From Promethearchaeota archaeon (GTDB taxonomy: Archaea > Asgardarchaeota > Lokiarchaeia > Sigyniarchaeales > SOKP01), in NCBI GenBank assembly GCA_016839765.1, contig JAEOTP010000071.1, forward strand, positions 1 through 64,000: DNA of 64,000 nt, read 5' to 3'. The notes below the pieces were generated by a model. That model did no database searches. It was given only the letters and a program-made list of their open reading frames with translations, and was not told the origin of the DNA. Positions 12,975 through 34,352 of the stretch are shown piece by piece (position 1 is the stretch's first letter; every line of letters starts with the position of its first letter). A program made the position numbers and the translations under genes.

Positions 12975-15851
12975 TTAAAAGTAAATACCTTTCTTACGAG
13001 AAAAATATTTCACCAGTTCAAAACCACCAATGCAAATAAGAGAAATTAAGAAACACACTAACCAATCAAACCCAGTCAAATACATAAACATAAAATTTAT
13101 GCCCCATGTCGCTAAAGTAACTTGTACACCAGGAATATACATTAAAGCTATGAAAACTCCGAATAATAACCCAATTAAGAGATACATAAATTTTGTACTA
13201 TCCTCTTTTATACTTTTAATTAAGGATTTGTTAGGTCTCCGAATTTGAAATACTAAGAAAGATTCGCAGAAAAACAAAGTAACCATAAGCATTGTTAGAG
13301 TTTTTGCTTGAATTAGGACTTCTTTTGAAGTCTCTGAGGAATAAAGGTATGCATCATTAAAACTTCCAAAATCTAAATCATCTGGGGTAGGATATAACCC
13401 CGTGTAAACTATAAAATATGTTATAATCATACAAGCAGCTAATAATATACCAAATATAAATAAAAGAATAAAAGTATTCTTTGAAAGTATTTCTTCCTCA
13501 TCTCGTGGTTTTTGCTTCATGACATCTTTAGACGTTTTATCAAAAGTTAAAATTAAACCAGGAAAAAGGTGTAGAGTTATTGTTAGAAAAATCCATTGAT
13601 AGTAGAAAGCTTCGCTCAAAAAATAGGGAAGTCTAAATATTACCGTTAAAAAAAATTGTACAAGTCCCTCGAAAACATTAATACAAATATAGAAAAATAC
13701 CACAGCACGTATACGAGAGAAGATTCCCCTACCTTGTTCAATTCCAGTAACAATTGAATTAAATGAATCATCGCTAATGACCATATCCGAAGCTTCCTTA
13801 GCTACGTCTGTTCCTTGAATTCCCATTGCGATACCAGCATCTGCCATATTGAGTGCAAGAGCATCATTCACACCATCGCCTGTCATTGCAACTACCTTAT
13901 TGGCATCTTGATATTGCTCGATAATATCTTCTTTGTGCTCTGGAGATACTCTAGCAAAAACCTTAATTTTATTGAAATCGTAAAATGAATCAATTTCTTT
14001 CACATCCTTACCCTTAACAACTAACTCATCTTCTTCCTTTATTATAGCTATTTGTGTTGCAATAGCCCTTGCAGTGGTAGGTGAGTCTCCTGTGATCATA
14101 ACAACATCAACACCAGCATCATGACATTCAATTACACTCTCACGAACTCCTTCCCGAGGTGGATCAAGAATAGTAACAAATCCTATATAGATCATTTCTG
14201 ATTCATATAATTCTCTATTTTTATCACTTTCGGAAGGCAATTCATCTAATTTTTTATAACAAATGCTTAATATGCGATACCCTTGTGCTGCGTATACATC
14301 AGCAATTTTTATTACTTTTTCTTTTATTTCATCAATTAAATCCACTTCCGTGTTTTTATACAAAATTTTTTTACATAGTGGCATGAGTATATCACTTGCA
14401 CCTTTAGTGAAGGAGTAATATTTCCCATCTCTCTTATAAATTTTCGTCATTCTTTTAACTTTTGAATCAAATGGATATTCCTTAATATATTCAAAGTCTT
14501 CAAGCATGTATGAGCCCATTCCTTTTTGAAAAAGAACCATTAAAGCGCCTTCAGTGGGAGATCCAATGACATTCCAGTTTGGGATAATTTTGCCTGAAAT
14601 TTCAATTTCATTTTTAACTAACGCAGAATTGTTATTTAGAAATCCTGATGTTAATAATAATTTGAGTTGTGGATGTTCATCAATATGCTTTATATAAACA
14701 GGATTTTTTGGGTCATCAATCAAGATAATATCACCTTCAGGACTATAACCACTTCCAGTTACCTTGTAATTAGACCCATTTGTCCATACATGTTGGATGC
14801 TCATTTGATTTTTAGTTAGCGTACCAGTTTTATCTGAACATATTACGCTTACTCTTCCTAAACTGTCAACGGAGGCAAGGTTTCTTATAATAACACCATG
14901 ACGAGCCATAACTAATACTCCTGTAATCAGAATTATTGTTACTAATAAGGGAATATTTAAAGGAAGTAGATCCATAGCTGAATTTAAACTAATAACCACT
15001 TCTGGGGTGCCTTCAGCAACCCATTTTATTAAGAGAACTAAAAGCCAAAAACCAAAAACAATTAACCCTAACCATTTACCAAAATGATTCATTTTTTGAC
15101 GGATAGGGATTTCACTTGTGCCCGCCTCCTCTAATCCTTGAGAAATTTTTCCAATTTCAGTGTCTTTGCCTATCTTTACGGCTATAGCAGTTGCGTTACC
15201 TGTTGTGATATATGTTCCATAAAAAACCATATTAAAACGTTCTCCAATTGAGATTTCAATATCAGATAATGCATAACCTTCATATAATTTTTTAACTGGT
15301 TCACTTTCACCTGTTAATGACGCTTCATTAACCTCAAGATTAGATGCTCTTATTATTCTTCCATCTGCAGGAATTCTATCACCTTGTGTTAATACTAAAA
15401 GATCTCCTACGACAACATTTTTGGTAGGTATATCCATCTTTTCACCATCTCTAATGACTGTCGTAGTTGGAGCTGTCATTTCTCTTAAAGCTTTTAATTT
15501 CTTAGTTGCTCTATATTGTTGTACGATTGCGACAAAACAATTTAAAAAAACGATCCCTAGAGTTATTCCCACAAACATTAAATTTCCTCCTCCAAAGAAT
15601 GCTGCTAAAAATAAAATTACCGCCCCAATTAGGTAAATTACAATTAACCAGTTAAATAAAGGTGCTAAGTAGATTTTAATAAATCCTTTTGAGGCTTTAG
15701 GTATTTCATTAAAGCCATATAATTCCAATCTTTTCTGTACATCCTCTTTTGATAATCCATTAGTGGGATTTGTCTGAAATTCAGAATAGATTTGGTTTAA
15801 ATCCATTGTATAATAAGGTTCTGGCATAAAAGGATCTCCCGTAACTTTCAA
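12975..15851 (-). CDS. P-type ATPase, P2A (SERCA-like) scaffold with non-canonical transport site; ATG at 15827 is a likely start
   Basis: LTGES, CSDKTGTLT, KGA, DPPR, MITGD, FARVSP, TGDGVND; TM4 reads DLLPLNIP instead of PEGLP. Confidence 0.9.
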   Translation of the reverse strand: MKVTGDPFMPEPYYTMDLNQIYSEFQTNPTNGLSKEDVQKRLELYGFNEIPKASKGFIKIYLAPLFNWLIVIYLIGAVILFLAAFFGGGNLMFVGITLGIVFLNCFVAIVQQYRATKKLKALREMTAPTTTVIRDGEKMDIPTKNVVVGDLLVLTQGDRIPADGRIIRASNLEVNEASLTGESEPVKKLYEGYALSDIEISIGERFNMVFYGTYITTGNATAIAVKIGKDTEIGKISQGLEEAGTSEIPIRQKMNHFGKWLGLIVFGFWLLVLLIKWVAEGTPEVVISLNSAMDLLPLNIPLLVTIILITGVLVMARHGVIIRNLASVDSLGRVSVICSDKTGTLTKNQMSIQHVWTNGSNYKVTGSGYSPEGDIILIDDPKNPVYIKHIDEHPQLKLLLTSGFLNNNSALVKNEIEISGKIIPNWNVIGSPTEGALMVLFQKGMGSYMLEDFEYIKEYPFDSKVKRMTKIYKRDGKYYSFTKGASDILMPLCKKILYKNTEVDLIDEIKEKVIKIADVYAAQGYRILSICYKKLDELPSESDKNRELYESEMIYIGFVTILDPPREGVRESVIECHDAGVDVVMITGDSPTTARAIATQIAIIKEEDELVVKGKDVKEIDSFYDFNKIKVFARVSPEHKEDIIEQYQDANKVVAMTGDGVNDALALNMADAGIAMGIQGTDVAKEASDMVISDDSFNSIVTGIEQGRGIFSRIRAVVFFYICINVFEGLVQFFLTVIFRLPYFLSEAFYYQWIFLTITLHLFPGLILTFDKTSKDVMKQKPRDEEEILSKNTFILLFIFGILLAACMIITYFIVYTGLYPTPDDLDFGSFNDAYLYSSETSKEVLIQAKTLTMLMVTLFFCESFLVFQIRRPNKSLIKSIKEDSTKFMYLLIGLLFGVFIALMYIPGVQVTLATWGINFMFMYLTGFDWLVCFLISLICIGGFELVKYFSRKKGIYF

Positions 15852-15970
15852 AAATTTATTAATATATTGTTATAAAATTAAATCATTTTAATAGATAGAC
15901 TATAACAATAATTCTTTTTATTTTATTTCTTTTTGATAAAAAAATTGGTTTATTATACCATAAAATAAAA

Positions 15971-16786
15971 TTAATTTTTAGAATTAGATTTAATTTTTTC
16001 TCTAAATTTCTTAATTAATTTACTCCAATCAATATAAACTAATAGGAACAGAATTATTATAGATGTTGCCCAAAGTAGAGAACTTAGTAAAATCTCCAAT
16101 AGCGTGCTCTCTGGGATAATTCCCAAACTAGCAGCATCGAGATCAATCCCAAATAAATTAAAGAGAAATTCACCAAAAGCGGTATCTGCTAACCAAATAG
16201 GAAGTGCGCTACATAAAAAGCATAGAACAAATTTTCCCATGAAACAATAAATCAAGGTTTTAAAGATACTATATTGGGCTATGCCGAGAACAATTAGAAA
16301 TGCATCATCTGGAAGAGGTGTTGCAGCAAAAATGAAAATTAATATTGGTGCCCAACCTTTTTCAACATAACGTTTCATACGTTCAACACTTTCTGAGTCT
16401 CTAAGAAGATTTTTAGATCCACGACCAATTAACCATGCAGTAATTTCCCCAATACTTGCTCCAAGACCACCTACAATTCCAAGTAAAATTGGATTTACAC
16501 CAGGAATTACTGCAGATATTACTATAAGCGCAATTGTATAGGGAACAGGAAATATTATTGTAAAGTTTCCAAAAATGCTAATTAAAAAAACTCCAAGATA
16601 AATTCCAAAGTCTCCAAATTCTCCGTAAAACCACATAACAGTGGTAGCAAGCCATTGACCAAAATTTATATTTAATACGGCTAAAAGAATAAATAAGATT
16701 AATATACCACAAATAAAGATGATTCCACCATATTTCTTTATAAAAACCATCCTATAAGAGGATTTTACGGCCTTTTCTTCGTTCAT
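15971..16786 (-). CDS. DedA/VTT-domain (SNARE-associated) membrane protein, VMP1-like
   Basis: Re-entrant-type motifs GNFTIIFPVPY and FAATPLPDD, and GGLGASIGE helix. Confidence 0.8.
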   Translation of the reverse strand: MNEEKAVKSSYRMVFIKKYGGIIFICGILILFILLAVLNINFGQWLATTVMWFYGEFGDFGIYLGVFLISIFGNFTIIFPVPYTIALIVISAVIPGVNPILLGIVGGLGASIGEITAWLIGRGSKNLLRDSESVERMKRYVEKGWAPILIFIFAATPLPDDAFLIVLGIAQYSIFKTLIYCFMGKFVLCFLCSALPIWLADTAFGEFLFNLFGIDLDAASLGIIPESTLLEILLSSLLWATSIIILFLLVYIDWSKLIKKFREKIKSNSKN

Positions 16787-16829
16787 TTAATTTCTTTCTA
16801 TGTTTATTAAATATAAAAAAAACAAAATT

Positions 16830-19673
16830 TTAGAATATTATATTTTTTCGTCTTGCTAAGTATTTAATCACTTCAATTCCGAAAATCCCTGGCAGAGACA
16901 ATAAAATACAAATTAACCAGTCAGTACCGCTAAGGAACATGAAATTAATCTGGAAATTTAATCCTGATGACGCTATGAAGGAATTAATGGGTAATGAAAA
17001 ACAAATATGTAATATATGTAGTAGTAAAGTAAATGAGTTGATAATAAATAACTTCCAGCTAAATTCCTCTTTAATACTTTTAAACAGGGATTTATTTGGT
17101 CTTCTTATACTCCATATAAAAGTTGTTTCCACAATAAAAAGCGTCGTAATAAACATGGTTCTTGCTTTTTGTGCAATTAAATCACTTTCTAAAAGACTTA
17201 AATTAACATTCCAAGAATTTAAGGGAATCATTTCCCCTAAAGTTAGTTGTAAAGCCAAAACTATACCTAAACCCATTAGGAAAGCATGAATAAGTAATAA
17301 TATCCATATGTTTCTATTTAATAATTCCTCTTTATTTCTTGGAGGTTCATTCATGACATCTATAGGTGGTTTATCAATAACTAATGCTAATGAAGGAAGT
17401 GAATGAACTATCCCAAAAATATAAATATGCTGCCATTCTGAACTAAATAACGCAAATGTTGGTATGAATTCATAAGTAAAGAATATCAGCGCCTCCATAA
17501 TATTTAAACATATGAAGAAGTAAACGATAATTCGGATCTTAGCAAATAAGCCTCTACCGATCTTCACACCTTTTACTATAGATGTAAAATTATCATCTGA
17601 TATTACAAGATCTGCAATCTCTTTAGCAACATCGGTACCAGTAATTCCCATAGCTATTCCTGCATTGGCTAACTTTAAAGCTAAAGCATCATTAACTCCG
17701 TCACCTGTCATAGCAGTTATCTTATTCTGTTTTTGATAATTTTTAACAATGACTTCTTTATCTGAAGGAGATACTCTAGCAAAAACCGAGACCCGATTAA
17801 AATCCTGTTCATTGAGTCTTGATATTTCATAACCTTCAATAACCAAATCATTTGGTTTGTATATCCTCATTTGAGATGCTATAGTTTGAGCCGTGCTAGG
17901 ATGATCACCAGTTATCATTACTACTTTTATACGTCCAGATTCACATTCTTCTACTGATTCCCTTACTTGACTACGAGGTGGATCTAATATCGCCAAGAAA
18001 CTTAGAAAAGTCAGATCTTTCTCAATACTCTCTCTAGTTTCTACTAATTTATTTTCTATTTTTTTATATGCAACAGCTAAAGTTCTATAACCTTGTTTTG
18101 CTTTTGATTGAATATTATTCAAAATCTCTTCCTTTTTATCCATTGATAGGGTTTCTATTTGTCTATTGGTTTCTATGTCAGTACATATTTCTAGAATTTT
18201 TTCAGGAGCACCTTTAGAAAAGATATAATTAGTATCACCATCGCTATTTGATCTACAAATGGTAGACATACGTTTGATTTCAGAACTAAATGAAAATTCT
18301 TTTATTTTTTCATAGCTTCTCTTAATATCATATAAGATATAACCTGCTTTTTCAGCTAATACTAGAAGTGCTGCTTCTGTAGGTGATCCTAAAGCTCTTC
18401 TTACTGCCATTTCTTTCCTGCCTTTTCCTCTTACTTTAACATCTTCATAAATAAGATTTGCATTATTATTTAGTACACTTGATTCAATGAACGTTTGAAA
18501 TGTTTTATTATCTTGTAGGTTAATAACTTTACCATTTTCTGAAATAAAGCCTTCAGTTTCATATCCAGAACCTGTAACATTATATTCTATGTTATTAATC
18601 CAAAACTTTTCTACTGTCATTTCGTTTTTGGTTATTGTTCCAGTTTTATCTGAGCAAATTACAGATACCCTCCCTAAGGATTCAATAGCAGAAAGATTTT
18701 TTATAATAACACCATGTTGAGCCATATTAAGAACGCCAGTAATTAAAACTAGTGTTGTCAATATGGGCAAATTAATAGGCATAATATTCATTGATCTAAG
18801 AATTGAGCTAATCAATGCTTCACTGATATAATCTCCATAAAATTTTCCCTGAATGCCTAAAAGAGCAAATTTATATATAATCAGAACTGCAAGAATAATA
18901 ATTACAATGGAACCTAAGATATATCCAAGTTTGTTTAATTTTCTTGTTAATGGAATTTCTTCAATACTTCCCATTTCATTTAATTGAGTTGATATTTTTC
19001 CAATTTCTGTATTAACTCCTGTTCCTGTAACTACTGCCTTTGCCCTCCCAGTATCAACATATGTGCCCATAAATACCATATTAAATTGTTTCTGTATTGG
19101 TAATTCTGCATTTTTTAGTTCACCATTATTTTTTTCAACAGGCTCACTTTCACCTGTCAGAGCTGCTTCATCAATAGTTAGGTTGACGAAATCAATGATT
19201 CTAGCGTCAGCAGGAATTTTATCCCCTTGTTCTAATAAAATTATATCTCCTGGTATTAATTCTCTTGTTGGGATTTCAAATTGTTCACCATCTCTCAAAA
19301 CAGTTGCTTTTAATGCGCCAATTTTTCTTAAAGATTCGAGGGCTTTCTGTGCTCTAAACTGCTGGATTATTACAGTTATAGAGTTTAGGAAAACTACGGT
19401 GAAGGTAATTATTGTTGATGCTGGAGACCCTAGGAGTAATACGATAATTCCAGAAATTAGCAAGATAACTATCAAAAAATTAAAAATGGGAGCTAAATAA
19501 ATTTTCCAAATGGATTTTTTAATTTTAGGTAATTCATTATATCCATATTTAGAATAAAATTGCTCCAAATTTGATAATTTTAACCCTTTTTCTTCATCCG
19601 TATTAAACTCTTTAATTAACTCATTAATAGATTTTGTATAATAGTTATTATTATATAAATGAATTTGAGACAT
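16830..19673 (-). CDS. P-type ATPase, P2A-like scaffold with non-canonical transport site (paralogue of 12975..15851)
   Basis: LTGES, CSDKTGTIT, KGAPE, DPPR, MITGDH, TGDGVND; TM4 reads NIMPINLP. Confidence 0.9.
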   Translation of the reverse strand: MSQIHLYNNNYYTKSINELIKEFNTDEEKGLKLSNLEQFYSKYGYNELPKIKKSIWKIYLAPIFNFLIVILLISGIIVLLLGSPASTIITFTVVFLNSITVIIQQFRAQKALESLRKIGALKATVLRDGEQFEIPTRELIPGDIILLEQGDKIPADARIIDFVNLTIDEAALTGESEPVEKNNGELKNAELPIQKQFNMVFMGTYVDTGRAKAVVTGTGVNTEIGKISTQLNEMGSIEEIPLTRKLNKLGYILGSIVIIILAVLIIYKFALLGIQGKFYGDYISEALISSILRSMNIMPINLPILTTLVLITGVLNMAQHGVIIKNLSAIESLGRVSVICSDKTGTITKNEMTVEKFWINNIEYNVTGSGYETEGFISENGKVINLQDNKTFQTFIESSVLNNNANLIYEDVKVRGKGRKEMAVRRALGSPTEAALLVLAEKAGYILYDIKRSYEKIKEFSFSSEIKRMSTICRSNSDGDTNYIFSKGAPEKILEICTDIETNRQIETLSMDKKEEILNNIQSKAKQGYRTLAVAYKKIENKLVETRESIEKDLTFLSFLAILDPPRSQVRESVEECESGRIKVVMITGDHPSTAQTIASQMRIYKPNDLVIEGYEISRLNEQDFNRVSVFARVSPSDKEVIVKNYQKQNKITAMTGDGVNDALALKLANAGIAMGITGTDVAKEIADLVISDDNFTSIVKGVKIGRGLFAKIRIIVYFFICLNIMEALIFFTYEFIPTFALFSSEWQHIYIFGIVHSLPSLALVIDKPPIDVMNEPPRNKEELLNRNIWILLLIHAFLMGLGIVLALQLTLGEMIPLNSWNVNLSLLESDLIAQKARTMFITTLFIVETTFIWSIRRPNKSLFKSIKEEFSWKLFIINSFTLLLHILHICFSLPINSFIASSGLNFQINFMFLSGTDWLICILLSLPGIFGIEVIKYLARRKNIIF

Positions 19674-19767: not shown

Positions 19768-20742
19768 TTAAACGAATTCTACCTGCTCTGTTTGAGTATC
19801 CCCTAAAATATCTTTTAATACATTAAATTTTTTTCTAATTGTAGTACTTGAAAATTTGCTGGTTTCCTCAATAAGATTTTGGGTAAATATTTTCTTATTA
19901 TCTAAAGTCTGACCGACATAATAAATTAATCCTGCTGTAAATGCTTTATAATTGAGGTTTTGTATTTGAGAATAAGAAATCTTGTTTAGTAATTCAGCTG
20001 CTAATAGTTGCATTTCGATTTTTAATTTTTCATATTCAGATTTATTTGAAAAATGGGTTTTTATCTTATCATAACTAATACTATTGAGATCTTTTTGGAA
20101 TAATATTTTTATTTTTCCCTTAATTTCACGCTCTAATGTACCTTCATCTTTAACGCTCTTATCAAATAATTGTTCGGTTCTTTTTACTTTAAGCATTGCA
20201 TTATTAAGCATTTTTTTATTAATTTTATGACCTAATTCTCTGGCAACCTTAATGTATTCTTCTATCCTAACATTCGTCGTGTCTTTTATCTCCATCCAAA
20301 CAATTGCTAAAAAAATAATTACCATATTTTGATATGTATGCCTATGGTATTTGTTATATCTGAGATATCGATTTTTGATCCTTTGATTTTTTACTTTATT
20401 AATATTCAATCCTATTCCATAAGTCTTAAGCAATTCAATTGTTTTTTTTTGTTCAGAAAAACTAGTTTTATAATCTCTAAACCATTTATTTAATGTTTTA
20501 ATTTGGTCATACTTTTGTTTAATTTTTGGATCTTGCGTTGCTTTTGAATCTCCAAACCTTATTTTGCGTTCGTAATCCAATTGTGATTCTGAATAAATTC
20601 TATTAGAAGAAGGTGTTTCAAAATCTATTCGTTCGTCTAATATTAGTCCACAATCTTTACAAACAAGATATCCTCCAGCTTGTTCTAGGTTCCGGTGTTC
20701 ACATTTAGAGTTTTCAGAGGATTGTTCTCTTTTTTTTTTCAA
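19768..20742 (-). CDS. Divergent TFIIB/TFB-like protein (Zn ribbon plus cyclin-like repeats)
   Basis: CEH...GGYLVCKDCGLIL Zn ribbon; KAFTAGLIYY...TQNLIEETSKFSSTTIRKKF C-terminal HTH. Confidence 0.7.
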   Translation of the reverse strand: MKKKREQSSENSKCEHRNLEQAGGYLVCKDCGLILDERIDFETPSSNRIYSESQLDYERKIRFGDSKATQDPKIKQKYDQIKTLNKWFRDYKTSFSEQKKTIELLKTYGIGLNINKVKNQRIKNRYLRYNKYHRHTYQNMVIIFLAIVWMEIKDTTNVRIEEYIKVARELGHKINKKMLNNAMLKVKRTEQLFDKSVKDEGTLEREIKGKIKILFQKDLNSISYDKIKTHFSNKSEYEKLKIEMQLLAAELLNKISYSQIQNLNYKAFTAGLIYYVGQTLDNKKIFTQNLIEETSKFSSTTIRKKFNVLKDILGDTQTEQVEFV

Positions 20743-21500: not shown

Positions 21501-22424
21501 TCAGGATAATTTACTTTTAATTTGTTTTGCTCTACTTCTTAAAGTAACTTCTGTTATTTTTGCTATTTCTGCTACTAAACTCTGTGTTTTTTTCGCATTT
21601 CCATCTTTAGCAGCAATGTAGATACATGCTGCTGCTAATCCTTTTGGATCTTTACCTGTACGTTTCAATCCATTACTAGATGCTGTTCTTAGCATTTCTA
21701 TTGCGTTTTTTTGAATATTCATAGGTAACTCTAATTCATTTCCAAATCGATAAACTAAACTTTCTGCGGTAATAGGTTGATATCGTAATCCTAATTCAGG
21801 TAATACTTCACGAATTATCATAGCTAAACTTCTATGAACTGTTCTTCTAGGAGTTAATGAGGCTTCGCATAATTCATCTAATAAACGAGGAAAATCATGC
21901 ACTCTTATTGCAGCATATAAAGATCCTGCTATAAATCCATTAATTGAACGCCCCATAGTTAGTTTTTTCTTCGCAACAATACTATATACTTTCCAAGCTG
22001 TTTCACTGATGTATTCTGGAATGTTTAATTTAGATGTAAGCATTTTTAATTTAGGTTTAGCTTCCCAAAAATTCCTTTCAATGCTTGAAATTAATGAATT
22101 TTGAATTTTTGATAATCTCGAAAAAAGAGCTTGCTCTTTAGGACCAATTGATTTTCCTTTAGAATCCGTCTTTGTAGTGGGTAACATAGTTCTAGGACCA
22201 AAATCTCTCCACCTGGGTTCAGTCCTACGTCTAGTTTGAACTTCTTCAGCTGTATAAGCCCTTCTTTCATTTCCAACATAAGTTCTTTCTAAAATCATTC
22301 CACAATTTAAACAAACTTTATTTCCATCCCTCTCTTCGATACTTGGATTTTCACAGCATTCACAAACTTGTAAATTATCATCTAATTTATTGTTCTTCAG
22401 AAGATCTCGATAGCTATTATGCAT
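21501..22424 (-). CDS. tfb: Transcription initiation factor IIB
   Basis: CECC...CLNCG Zn ribbon, ERRAY, GRSI...AGSLYAA.R, GKDPKGLAAACIY, TQ..VA.IAKITEVTLRSR. Confidence 0.92.
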   Translation of the reverse strand: MHNSYRDLLKNNKLDDNLQVCECCENPSIEERDGNKVCLNCGMILERTYVGNERRAYTAEEVQTRRRTEPRWRDFGPRTMLPTTKTDSKGKSIGPKEQALFSRLSKIQNSLISSIERNFWEAKPKLKMLTSKLNIPEYISETAWKVYSIVAKKKLTMGRSINGFIAGSLYAAIRVHDFPRLLDELCEASLTPRRTVHRSLAMIIREVLPELGLRYQPITAESLVYRFGNELELPMNIQKNAIEMLRTASSNGLKRTGKDPKGLAAACIYIAAKDGNAKKTQSLVAEIAKITEVTLRSRAKQIKSKLS

Positions 22425-33245: not shown

Positions 33246-33797
33246 TTAAATAAATAATAAAATAAATAATATCATAAAAAACGGGGTCAGAAAATCTAAC
33301 AATGATGTTGTAATCGGTATTAAGAAGTTGTTTGGATCTTTACCTTTTCTAAATAAAAAAATTGAACTAACGAACAGAAATACAAACATCAAGCTAAAAA
33401 GCAGTAATACAGTAATCATAATAATTAATATTATTAAAAAAGGGTTTACTATTATTATTCCGGAAATATAACTAAAAATATATCCTAGTATAATTAATGC
33501 AAATAAACTTAATAAAATAGTTATAAGTAATCCATAAAAATCTTCCTTTAATCTATTTGATTTTTGAATTTTAGGAGATATAGTACCAATATATAAATGA
33601 GATGTTAATCTAGAGATTAAAACTGTGGAAATATCTCCTATTAGAGAATTCAATGAAGGTAAAATTAATAAGATAATTGGAAAACTGTATAATACCTCTC
33701 GATTTTCTGAAAGAATAGTACCAGAAATCAATCCAAATATTGAGGATATAATAACTACTACAATTGATTCCTTGAAAATTCTCTTAAAGTAATCCAT
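33246..33797 (-). CDS. MgtE-family divalent cation transporter, membrane half
   Basis: P.LNS.IGD...SR.TS.L, GKDPNNF.IP.TTS..D. Confidence 0.8.
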   Translation of the reverse strand: MDYFKRIFKESIVVVIISSIFGLISGTILSENREVLYSFPIILLILPSLNSLIGDISTVLISRLTSHLYIGTISPKIQKSNRLKEDFYGLLITILLSLFALIILGYIFSYISGIIIVNPFLIILIIMITVLLLFSLMFVFLFVSSIFLFRKGKDPNNFLIPITTSLLDFLTPFFMILFILLFI

Positions 33798-34352
33798 TCA
33801 TGGCACCCCCAAAAGGATTATAGTGAGATAAAAACATATTACTGTAGAAAAGTCATCAACTGCCGTCATAATAGGATTTACAATGTTATTTGGATCTAGC
33901 CCATATTTGAAAGCTATATAATTTAAAATTGTTGAACAAGGGATTGAAATTGTTAGAGTTAATAGTATTGAAAAAATTGGAATAACAATTAATAAATCAA
34001 AGCGTACAAGAAATAATTTTACCAAAATTAAATCTAATAACAAACTAGATAAGCCAATTATAAATGCGGTTACCATCGACAATATATAAGTCGCAAGTAC
34101 ATTTTCTATCCAAGATTTTTTATTAAATTGACCAATAATTAAATCTCTAGAAGTTCTCGCAATAAAAGGACCACTTATATTTCCCCGCATAGAAAGTAAA
34201 GCAGGAACGATTAGAATTAATATAAAGAAACTGTCAAAAGGCAGAATTAAAAGGGTTAAAACAACGCCCGCCAAAATATCTCCCATAATTGAGACGATTT
34301 CTGCTGGAAAAACCTCTTTAACAATTTTCCCTTTAGTATCCTGCGCTTCCAT
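33798..34352 (-). CDS. MgtE-family divalent cation transporter, membrane half
   Basis: PALLSMRGNI, GLDPNNIVNPIMTAVDD; abuts the next MgtE-type gene. Confidence 0.8.
   Translation of the reverse strand: MEAQDTKGKIVKEVFPAEIVSIMGDILAGVVLTLLILPFDSFFILILIVPALLSMRGNISGPFIARTSRDLIIGQFNKKSWIENVLATYILSMVTAFIIGLSSLLLDLILVKLFLVRFDLLIVIPIFSILLTLTISIPCSTILNYIAFKYGLDPNNIVNPIMTAVDDFSTVICFYLTIILLGVP

Follow-up and report, generated by a model that had tools for sequence, protein, structure and literature searches.

The 64,000-nucleotide window considered here, by which we mean the whole stretch of DNA that was analysed (contig JAEOTP010000071.1, our contig C53), belongs to an Asgard genome of 3.3 Mb that is 96% complete. 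It harbors a pair of paralogous P-type ATPases whose membrane transport site has lost the classical Ca2+ ligands of the pumps they otherwise resemble. The pair and a small membrane protein gene lying between its members are all encoded in the same direction on the minus strand:

16830-19673, minus strand: P0002, a P-type ATPase of 947 amino acids (open reading frame translation), belonging to the P0002-type subclade of what we call the PINLP/His clade
15971-16786, minus strand: a VTT/DedA-family membrane protein of 271 amino acids, between both pumps (Pfam VTT_dom, E 1.2e-8)
12975-15851, minus strand: P0001, the paralogous P-type ATPase, 958 amino acids from a TTG start (open reading frame translation), belonging to the P0001-type subclade

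The two ATPases share 43% identity along their entire length and each carries the full P2-type domain set, the Pfam matches of P0002 being E1-E2_ATPase, Cation_ATPase_N, Cation_ATPase_C and Hydrolase. The sequence motifs and the E1-E2/HAD domains place both proteins in the P-type superfamily, and the superfamily model TIGR01494 is matched with 283-285 bits at a cut-off of 62. P0001 and P0002 are real, intact P-type pumps. The longest open reading frame of P0001 begins with TTG, but its true start is probably the ATG at 15827, eight codons downstream (15827-15851, minus strand), because this codon is preceded by GGGAG and gives a better alignment to the N-terminus of P0002. P0002 and the VTT gene each have oligo-T runs after their stop codon, and TATA-like, AT-rich stretches are found 5' of each of the three genes; therefore co-transcription is not implied by their arrangement.

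The segments of the two proteins that matter most for the question of the transported substrate lie in the transmembrane segments M4, M5, M6 and M8, and they are the following:

18759-18794, minus strand: P0002 M4 motif SMNIMPINLPIL, with I300 aligned with E309 and N301 with G310 of SERCA (translation of exact coordinates; HMMER alignment)
14943-14978, minus strand: P0001 M4 motif AMDLLPLNIPLL, with L298, N299 and an extra Asp294 (translation of exact coordinates)
18636-18650, minus strand: P0002 phosphorylation motif DKTGT, D342 (translation)
17493-17504, minus strand: P0002 M5 NIME, with N724 and E727 matching N768 and E771 of SERCA (translation; alignment to SERCA2)
13668-13679, minus strand: P0001 M5 NVFE, with N725 and E728 (translation)
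17382-17414, minus strand: P0002 M6 GIVHSLPSLAL, with H757 at the SERCA D800 position (translation; alignment to SERCA2)
13548-13580, minus strand: P0001 M6 ITLHLFPGLIL, with H761 (translation)
17127-17129, minus strand: P0002 M8 Glu849, at the SERCA E908 position (translation; alignment)
13263-13265, minus strand: P0001 M8 Glu863 (translation)

The core of M4 reads PINLP in P0002 and PLNIP in P0001, where P2 pumps read PEGLP, and the P2A ligand positions N796, T799 and D800 of M6 are occupied by F, V and H in P0002 and by T, L and H in P0001. The residue equivalences were derived from HMMER alignments to solved pumps (LMCA1 and SERCA2). On LMCA1 the segment PINLP falls on PEALS and VHSLP on NDSLP, while on SERCA2 the residues N724 and E727 of P0002 fall on the NVGE motif, F753 on N796, V756 on T799 and H757 on D800. 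The position of the M8 glutamate follows from the alignment of homologues, and we take E908 to be its SERCA number. The catalytic part of the enzymes is conserved, since TGES, DKTGT, TGD, KGA and GDGVND are all intact in both proteins. The distance from the M4 proline to the phosphorylated aspartate is 43 residues in both (P299 to D342 in P0002, P297 to D340 in P0001), which is the spacing between P308 and D351 of SERCA. The paralogues differ near the site, where M4 carries Asp294 in P0001 and Asn296 in P0002.

The initial annotation of this DNA had quoted these M4 and M6 motifs, had noted the retention of M5 NxxE, the M8 Glu, DKTGT, TGES and GDGVND, and had concluded that the catalytic cycle looks intact. 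Translation of the exact coordinates of both genes bears out each of these statements, TGD being present as well. The alignment to SERCA and LMCA1 that it had recommended fixes the register from M4 to M6 and confirms that the site-II ligands of SERCA are replaced.

The substitutions are not restricted to this locus. When 1.84 billion cluster representatives were searched with phmmer, about 35 clusters came out on top (at least 530 bits), all of them with M4 of the form P-[ILVFW]-N-[ILF]-[PVI], and the ranking then changed sharply to PEGLP pumps. The search for P(I/L)N(L/I)P ATPases that had been proposed from the window thus does delimit a clade, and in a maximum-likelihood tree this clade is monophyletic with respect to canonical pumps (SH-like support 0.987). 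The tree contains well-supported old subclades, namely the P0001-type, the P0002-type, two more PIN(I/L)P groups, a PINIV group and a basal PFNFP group. Conservation was measured on 80 clade sequences assembled from the phmmer cluster representatives and from Asgard genomes. The M4 proline is present in all 80 and is followed by a hydrophobic residue in all 80 (Ile in 69), then by the asparagine equivalent to N301 in 77. The M5 residues corresponding to N724 and E727 are found in 76 and 80 sequences, the M6 histidine (H757) in 79 and the M8 glutamate (E849) in 74. Two more changes had escaped the initial annotation: the M1 Asp/Glu is replaced by Asn in 74 of the 80, and the M2 'QE' by 'QQ' (Q105) in 76, whereas all seven canonical pumps compared have Glu at the latter position. 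The TGES positions of the A-domain are kept as well (T in 77, G in 80, E in 80 and S in 76).

Such near-invariance of the same residues across the whole clade argues against both chance and decay. The initial annotation had reasoned that the same loss in two diverged paralogues speaks against decay, and the argument now extends to an entire clade with near-invariant Ile-Asn, Glu and His: its homologues keep the M4 Pro/hydrophobic/Asn, M5 Glu and M6 His in 77-80 of 80 cases, so the absence of conservation that would have undermined it was not encountered. The idea that these are decayed or non-transporting ATPases, e.g. a sensor or pseudo-pump, has in its favor only the loss of the classical ligands and is barely credible, as both genes have unbroken reading frames and the complete set of catalytic motifs, conservation of the new site residues is strong though identity within the clade radiation drops to about 35%, and about 200 sampled genomes retain at least one copy.

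This last figure comes from a sample of 301 Asgard genomes, approximately 200 of which (about two thirds) match the clade hidden Markov model (HMM) at more than about 1000 bits, often with several paralogues; it is a count of rows with an E-value of 0. An E-value cut of 1e-100 to 1e-200 is unfit for this model, with canonical pumps reaching about 890 bits. We relied on more than about 1000 bits or on direct inspection of the motif because an E-value cut fails to split the clade from canonical pumps. Ten other Asgard families score only 695-894 bits, and inspection of their pumps showed just canonical ones, with PE(G/A/S)L in M4 and the Asp in M6. At E 1e-285 the model finds no match in 251 sampled genomes of Thermoproteota (the phylum of a Bathyarchaeia genome) and none in 251 sampled genomes of Halobacteriota (the phylum of a Methanosarcinales genome). 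As a negative control only, a contig scan with generic patterns brought up a single clade member beside 79 canonical pumps from outside the Asgard archaea; among the 81 P-type open reading frames of the 79 non-Asgard loci, PE stands at M4 in 79 and the clade motif, a hydrophobic residue plus Asn, in none. The close homologues carry the names Promethearchaeota, Lokiarchaeota, Hodarchaeota, Hermodarchaeota and Thorarchaeota, and every taxon-named member of the clade is Asgard, the basal subclades included. The pumps with the Ile-Asn/Glu/His site form a monophyletic clade that, across the genomes and named proteins covered, occurs in Asgard archaea alone.

Among known P-type ATPases the nearest relatives are of the P2A type. 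The best solved sequence relatives are LMCA1, SPCA1 and SERCA (E 1e-126 to 1e-105). The AlphaFold2 (AF2) model of P0002 (pLDDT, a per-residue confidence, 83.8; pTM, a global one, 0.75), in which M4 is unwound at residues 296-301 as usual, finds its closest structural matches in SERCA2b, SERCA1a, SPCA1, LMCA1 and Na,K-ATPase (TM-score about 0.76). The P2A scaffold proposed initially is therefore well founded, given these relatives and this fold. The clade shares with P2A pumps (LMCA1 6zhf/9euq, human SPCA1 8iwp/7yag, SERCA1/2) the architecture of ten transmembrane segments with N- and C-terminal cation-ATPase domains, TGES, DKTGT, GDGVND, the 43-residue spacing, M5 NxxE and the M8 Glu. It differs from them in having P-(I/L/V/F)-N-(I/L/F)-P in place of PEGLP, x..xH in place of N..TD in M6, and Asn and Gln in place of the M1 Asp and M2 Glu of the funnel. 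P2A membership consequently agrees in overall fold and closest relatives but fails at the PEGL(P) Glu, at the M6 ligands and in the equivalog scores.

The equivalog models of NCBIfam describe the same situation, as P0001 and P0002 stay below the cut-off of every subfamily. The best models are the PMR1-type (TIGR01522; 469 and 460 bits, cut-off 798), the SERCA-type (TIGR01116; 422 and 457 bits, cut-off 703) and the IID or ENA-type (TIGR01523; 428 and 414 bits, cut-off 645). These are followed by P3A (TIGR01647; 332 and 340 bits, cut-off 615), by P5 (TIGR01657; 234 and 245 bits, cut-off 618), whose PP(E/A)LP signature is also missing from M4, and lastly by P4 (TIGR01652; 108 and 118 bits, cut-off 431). 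The P2D (ENA-type) Na+/K+ efflux ATPases, which are P2 pumps of fungi, bryophytes and protists that do not serve Ca2+ and whose M4 is not PEGLP, provide the second-best model for P0001 (428 bits); the window's pumps are set apart from them by score rather than residue by residue. Judged from the sequences, the clade is an uncharacterised Asgard offshoot of P2A (LMCA1/SPCA/SERCA-like) pumps.

What such an offshoot would transport has to be read from the changes in its site. The side-chain ligands of SERCA site II are lost, E309 being replaced by Ile, N796 by a variable hydrophobic residue and D800 by His. In site I the Asn and Glu of M5 and the Glu of M8 persist, Asp800 is exchanged for His, and M4 has gained a near-invariant Asn directly after its Ile. 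On the basis of clade membership, residue conservation and the loss of Ca2+ ligands, all of which are shown by the data, we favor a pump whose single site carries H+ or a different small cation that is not Ca2+, and would give this reading a probability of roughly 55%. The proposed mechanism is as follows. Because the catalytic motifs are intact, the enzymes would run through an ordinary Post-Albers cycle. The acidic cytoplasmic entry funnel, to which in SERCA the M1 Asp/Glu and the M2 Glu belong, is neutralised by the exchanges to Asn in M1 and from 'QE' to 'QQ' in M2. A single binding site would be built from the M5 Glu (plus Asn), the M6 His, the M4 Asn and usually the M8 Glu, and its cargo would be a small non-Ca2+ cation, most plausibly H+ or a cation that is monovalent or of a transition metal. 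The tight conservation of the buried Glu and His speaks for a cargo that is charged or can be protonated. In the H+ variant a Glu-His relay would work together with the M4 Ile, as in P3 proton pumps. Since the paralogues belong to old separate subclades and carry Asp294 and Asn296, respectively, near the site, they may differ in ion or stoichiometry.

The comparison with the P3A H+-ATPases (AHA2, PMA1) is instructive for this reading. Their proton acceptor is the M6 Asp, paired with an Asn in M2 and an Arg in M5, whereas the clade has a His in M6 and keeps Glu in M5 and M8. Nevertheless, a single protonatable centre would be a common logic of the two groups. In the place of E309, P3 H+-ATPases carry Ile or Val (PMC4937031), so in both groups a hydrophobic residue after the M4 Pro replaces the gating Glu. 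The initial annotation had stated that its reading would be refuted by an already characterised ion-pumping subfamily with the same motif. This applies in part, as the P3 H+-ATPases share the M4 Ile/Val.

The genome of the window also encodes a canonical pump with PEGL, NxxE and NxxxD and a CPC heavy-metal pump, and therefore Ca2+ and heavy-metal roles are covered separately. Genes with CorA and MgtE domains are present, so Mg2+ uptake is covered as well. Two adjacent small open reading frames of the window itself (33267-33659 and 33825-34208, minus strand; 183 and 186 amino acids) each match the MgtE membrane domain, which suggests a Mg2+ channel of MgtE type in split or minimal form. As to K+, the genome yielded no TrkH, KdpA or Kup. 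Phylogenetic profiling for a missing ion system was considered as a clue to function and rejected as uninformative. TrkH is found in 1 of the 301 sampled Asgard genomes (a weak fragment) and KdpA over its cut-off in 0 of 301, while control genomes match; both are missing in nearly all of the sample whether the clade is present or not, and because their absence is independent of the clade it provides no discriminating signal.

Several observations weigh against a small cation as the cargo. No ion-specific partner gene occurs in the 21 clade neighborhoods compared, and some neighbors in different lineages are lipid-related (VTT, YhhN, PGAP1-like hydrolase, SCP2). The exchange of three funnel acids for Asn/Gln would suit a neutral or amphipathic cargo too. 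One subclade has given up the M8 Glu (5 of the 80 sequences carry Ile there), and alkali cations are not usually bound by His. These points lead to the alternatives, the first of which is an organic cation or other small polar organic cargo, e.g. a polyamine as in P5B pumps, held by the cluster of Glu, His and Glu. The acidic and His residues kept in the membrane core, together with the disappearance of the hard-cation ligands and funnel acids, would fit such a cargo, and the history of the P5B pumps offers a precedent, showing that an M4 motif without Glu can signal organic cargo (PMC4033846). However, the pumps have no P5 signature, neither in the M4 motif nor in the score given above, no polyamine-metabolism genes lie nearby, and nothing is specific to this substrate class, so we regard an organic cargo as unlikely.

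More attention must be paid to lipids, since the initial annotation had described M4 as flippase-like and had suggested a transitional route from ion pump to flippase. One would argue that the pumps flip lipids or carry lipid-linked compounds and represent an archaeal analogue or forerunner of the eukaryotic P4 flippases, in which the M4 Ile acts as a hydrophobic gate and an Asn/Gln-lined groove between M1, M2 and M4 accepts the head group. The Ile at the E309 position is indeed found in the PISL motif of P4 pumps (PMC4937031), Asn and Gln do replace the acidic funnel residues, and there are occasional lipid-related neighbors, namely VTT in the genus of the window, YhhN and a PGAP1-like hydrolase in one family (f24) and SCP2 in another (f9). 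However, the likeness to P4 flippases (ATP8A2, Drs2) ends with the P-I dipeptide: the Ser of PISL is a conserved Asn in the clade, the A-domain has TGES and not DGET, and I, V or L stands at the position of the M5 Lys (K873 of ATP8A2). The clade further keeps acidic residues in the membrane core, with an invariant M5 Glu and a nearly invariant M8 Glu and M6 His at the canonical ion site, where P4 pumps have no need of a buried Glu. When the M4 segment alone was searched among solved chains, it matched MgtA, SPCA1, PMA1, CopA, LMCA1 and SERCA, without a single P4 pump up to an E-value of 10. Similarly, no P4 or P5 structure occurs among the top 50 fold matches of the AF2 model, and the TIGR01652 score is far below its cut-off.

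The 'NxxP' pattern that had been taken as P4-like does not stand up to the alignment either. The residue three before the M4 Pro varies in the clade (D in 19, S in 17, N in 17 and T in 17 of the 80 sequences), whereas N359 of ATP8A2 lies four residues before P363 (PMC4937031). The P4 asparagine is thus one residue out of register with a clade position that is itself unconserved. The only residue in common, the hydrophobic one after the M4 Pro, makes for a weak likeness because it is also present in P3 H+-ATPases. As the VTT gene in addition occurs in a minority of tandem loci, a flippase is quite improbable, and a flippase-like site or a transition towards flippases is not supported by the data. 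What stands of the earlier proposal of a new substrate is that it is probably not Ca2+, as the replacement of the site-II ligands soundly suggests; its lipid or organic cargo is unsupported. In a broader version, a transporter invented within the Asgard archaea would pass a cargo of non-ionic or amphipathic nature, be it the head group of an archaeal lipid, an intermediate linked to a lipid or an organic cation, through the neutralised M1-M2-M4 funnel. We consider this a long shot too; if true, it would be an independent step from an ion pump to a 'giant-substrate' pump on the archaeal side of eukaryogenesis.

Finally, the pumps might still transport Ca2+ or Mn2+, as the database names 'Ca2+-transporting ATPase' and 'P-type Ca2+ transporter type 2C' indicate. 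The overall similarity is highest to LMCA1, SPCA1 and SERCA, and site I still has its equivalents of N768, E771 and E908. Contrastingly, E309, N796, T799 and D800 are all replaced and their replacements conserved, the Ca2+ equivalogs are far from reached (at best 469 bits for a cut-off of 798 and 457 for 703), and a canonical Ca2+-type pump is encoded elsewhere in the same genome. Therefore, a Ca2+ or Mn2+ pump is very unlikely.

The gene neighborhoods were compared in 21 loci, six of which belong to the family of the window (f1). Both paralogues are in tandem in all six. Among the fetched tandem loci of this family, the VTT gene lies between the paralogues only in the window and in L128, a locus of the same genus in which (L128:8609-11250) it is accompanied by a NUDIX-domain protein of 574 amino acids; most tandem pairs have neither. 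Of the same-genus pairs listed, four have an insert of at least 1 kb and seven are directly adjacent. The VTT gene is a variable passenger and no conserved partner. In other lineages a lone clade pump stands beside unrelated genes, for instance a subtilase, panB and an MFS gene in one and the YhhN and PGAP1-like genes in another. A conserved lipid module was considered and rejected, as the neighbors (VTT, NUDIX, subtilase, panB, MFS, YhhN, PGAP1-like hydrolase, SCP2) vary by lineage. The only recurring neighbors across the 21 loci are the tandem pair itself and, in the family of the window, a TFIIB-like gene, which is found beside or near the pump pair in all six loci. In the window this gene lies directly upstream of the pair (19768-20742, minus strand) and encodes a divergent TFIIB-like protein of 324 amino acids whose N-terminus carries a zinc ribbon; close by lies a genuine TFIIB gene (21501-22424, minus strand). 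The TFIIB-like protein may be a dedicated regulator of the pump pair.

Some of the loci showed further features. Immediately downstream of a clade pump, L118:6183-8150 (minus strand) encodes a protein of about 655 amino acids with a weak Pfam match to E3_UFM1_ligase (E 1e-5), and this family occurs in five f9 loci of one Asgard lineage. In f24 a clade pump is flanked by a membrane protein of the YhhN family (lysoplasmalogenase-like; L125:7128-7829, plus strand) and by the PGAP1-like alpha/beta hydrolase (L125:10951-11853, minus strand). Six very long relatives of about 1550-1700 amino acids (P0160, P0161, P0174, P0190, P0261 and P0272) have a C-terminal half that matches a PEGL-type pump, and in P0160, P0161 and P0174 the N-terminal half has a second DKTGT after a non-PEGL M4-like segment. 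From these halves, the six look like double P-type ATPase fusions.

The subfamilies of P-type ATPases are defined by the signatures of their membrane sites, and to our knowledge every newly recognised signature has until now gone with a new substrate, as happened with the P5 pumps. The clade to which P0001 and P0002 belong is large and apparently undescribed, and we found no paper on it or on its motif in the literature. Databases label its members 'Ca2+-transporting ATPase', and this label feeds inferences on Ca2+ signalling in Asgard archaea. Asgard P2 pumps have been taken as putative Ca2+-ATPases (PMC7997004), by which either members of the clade or canonical pumps may be meant. The family can be easily tested biochemically. 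Identifying its cargo would fill a gap in the membrane physiology of Asgard archaea and reveal a new build of the P-type transport site.

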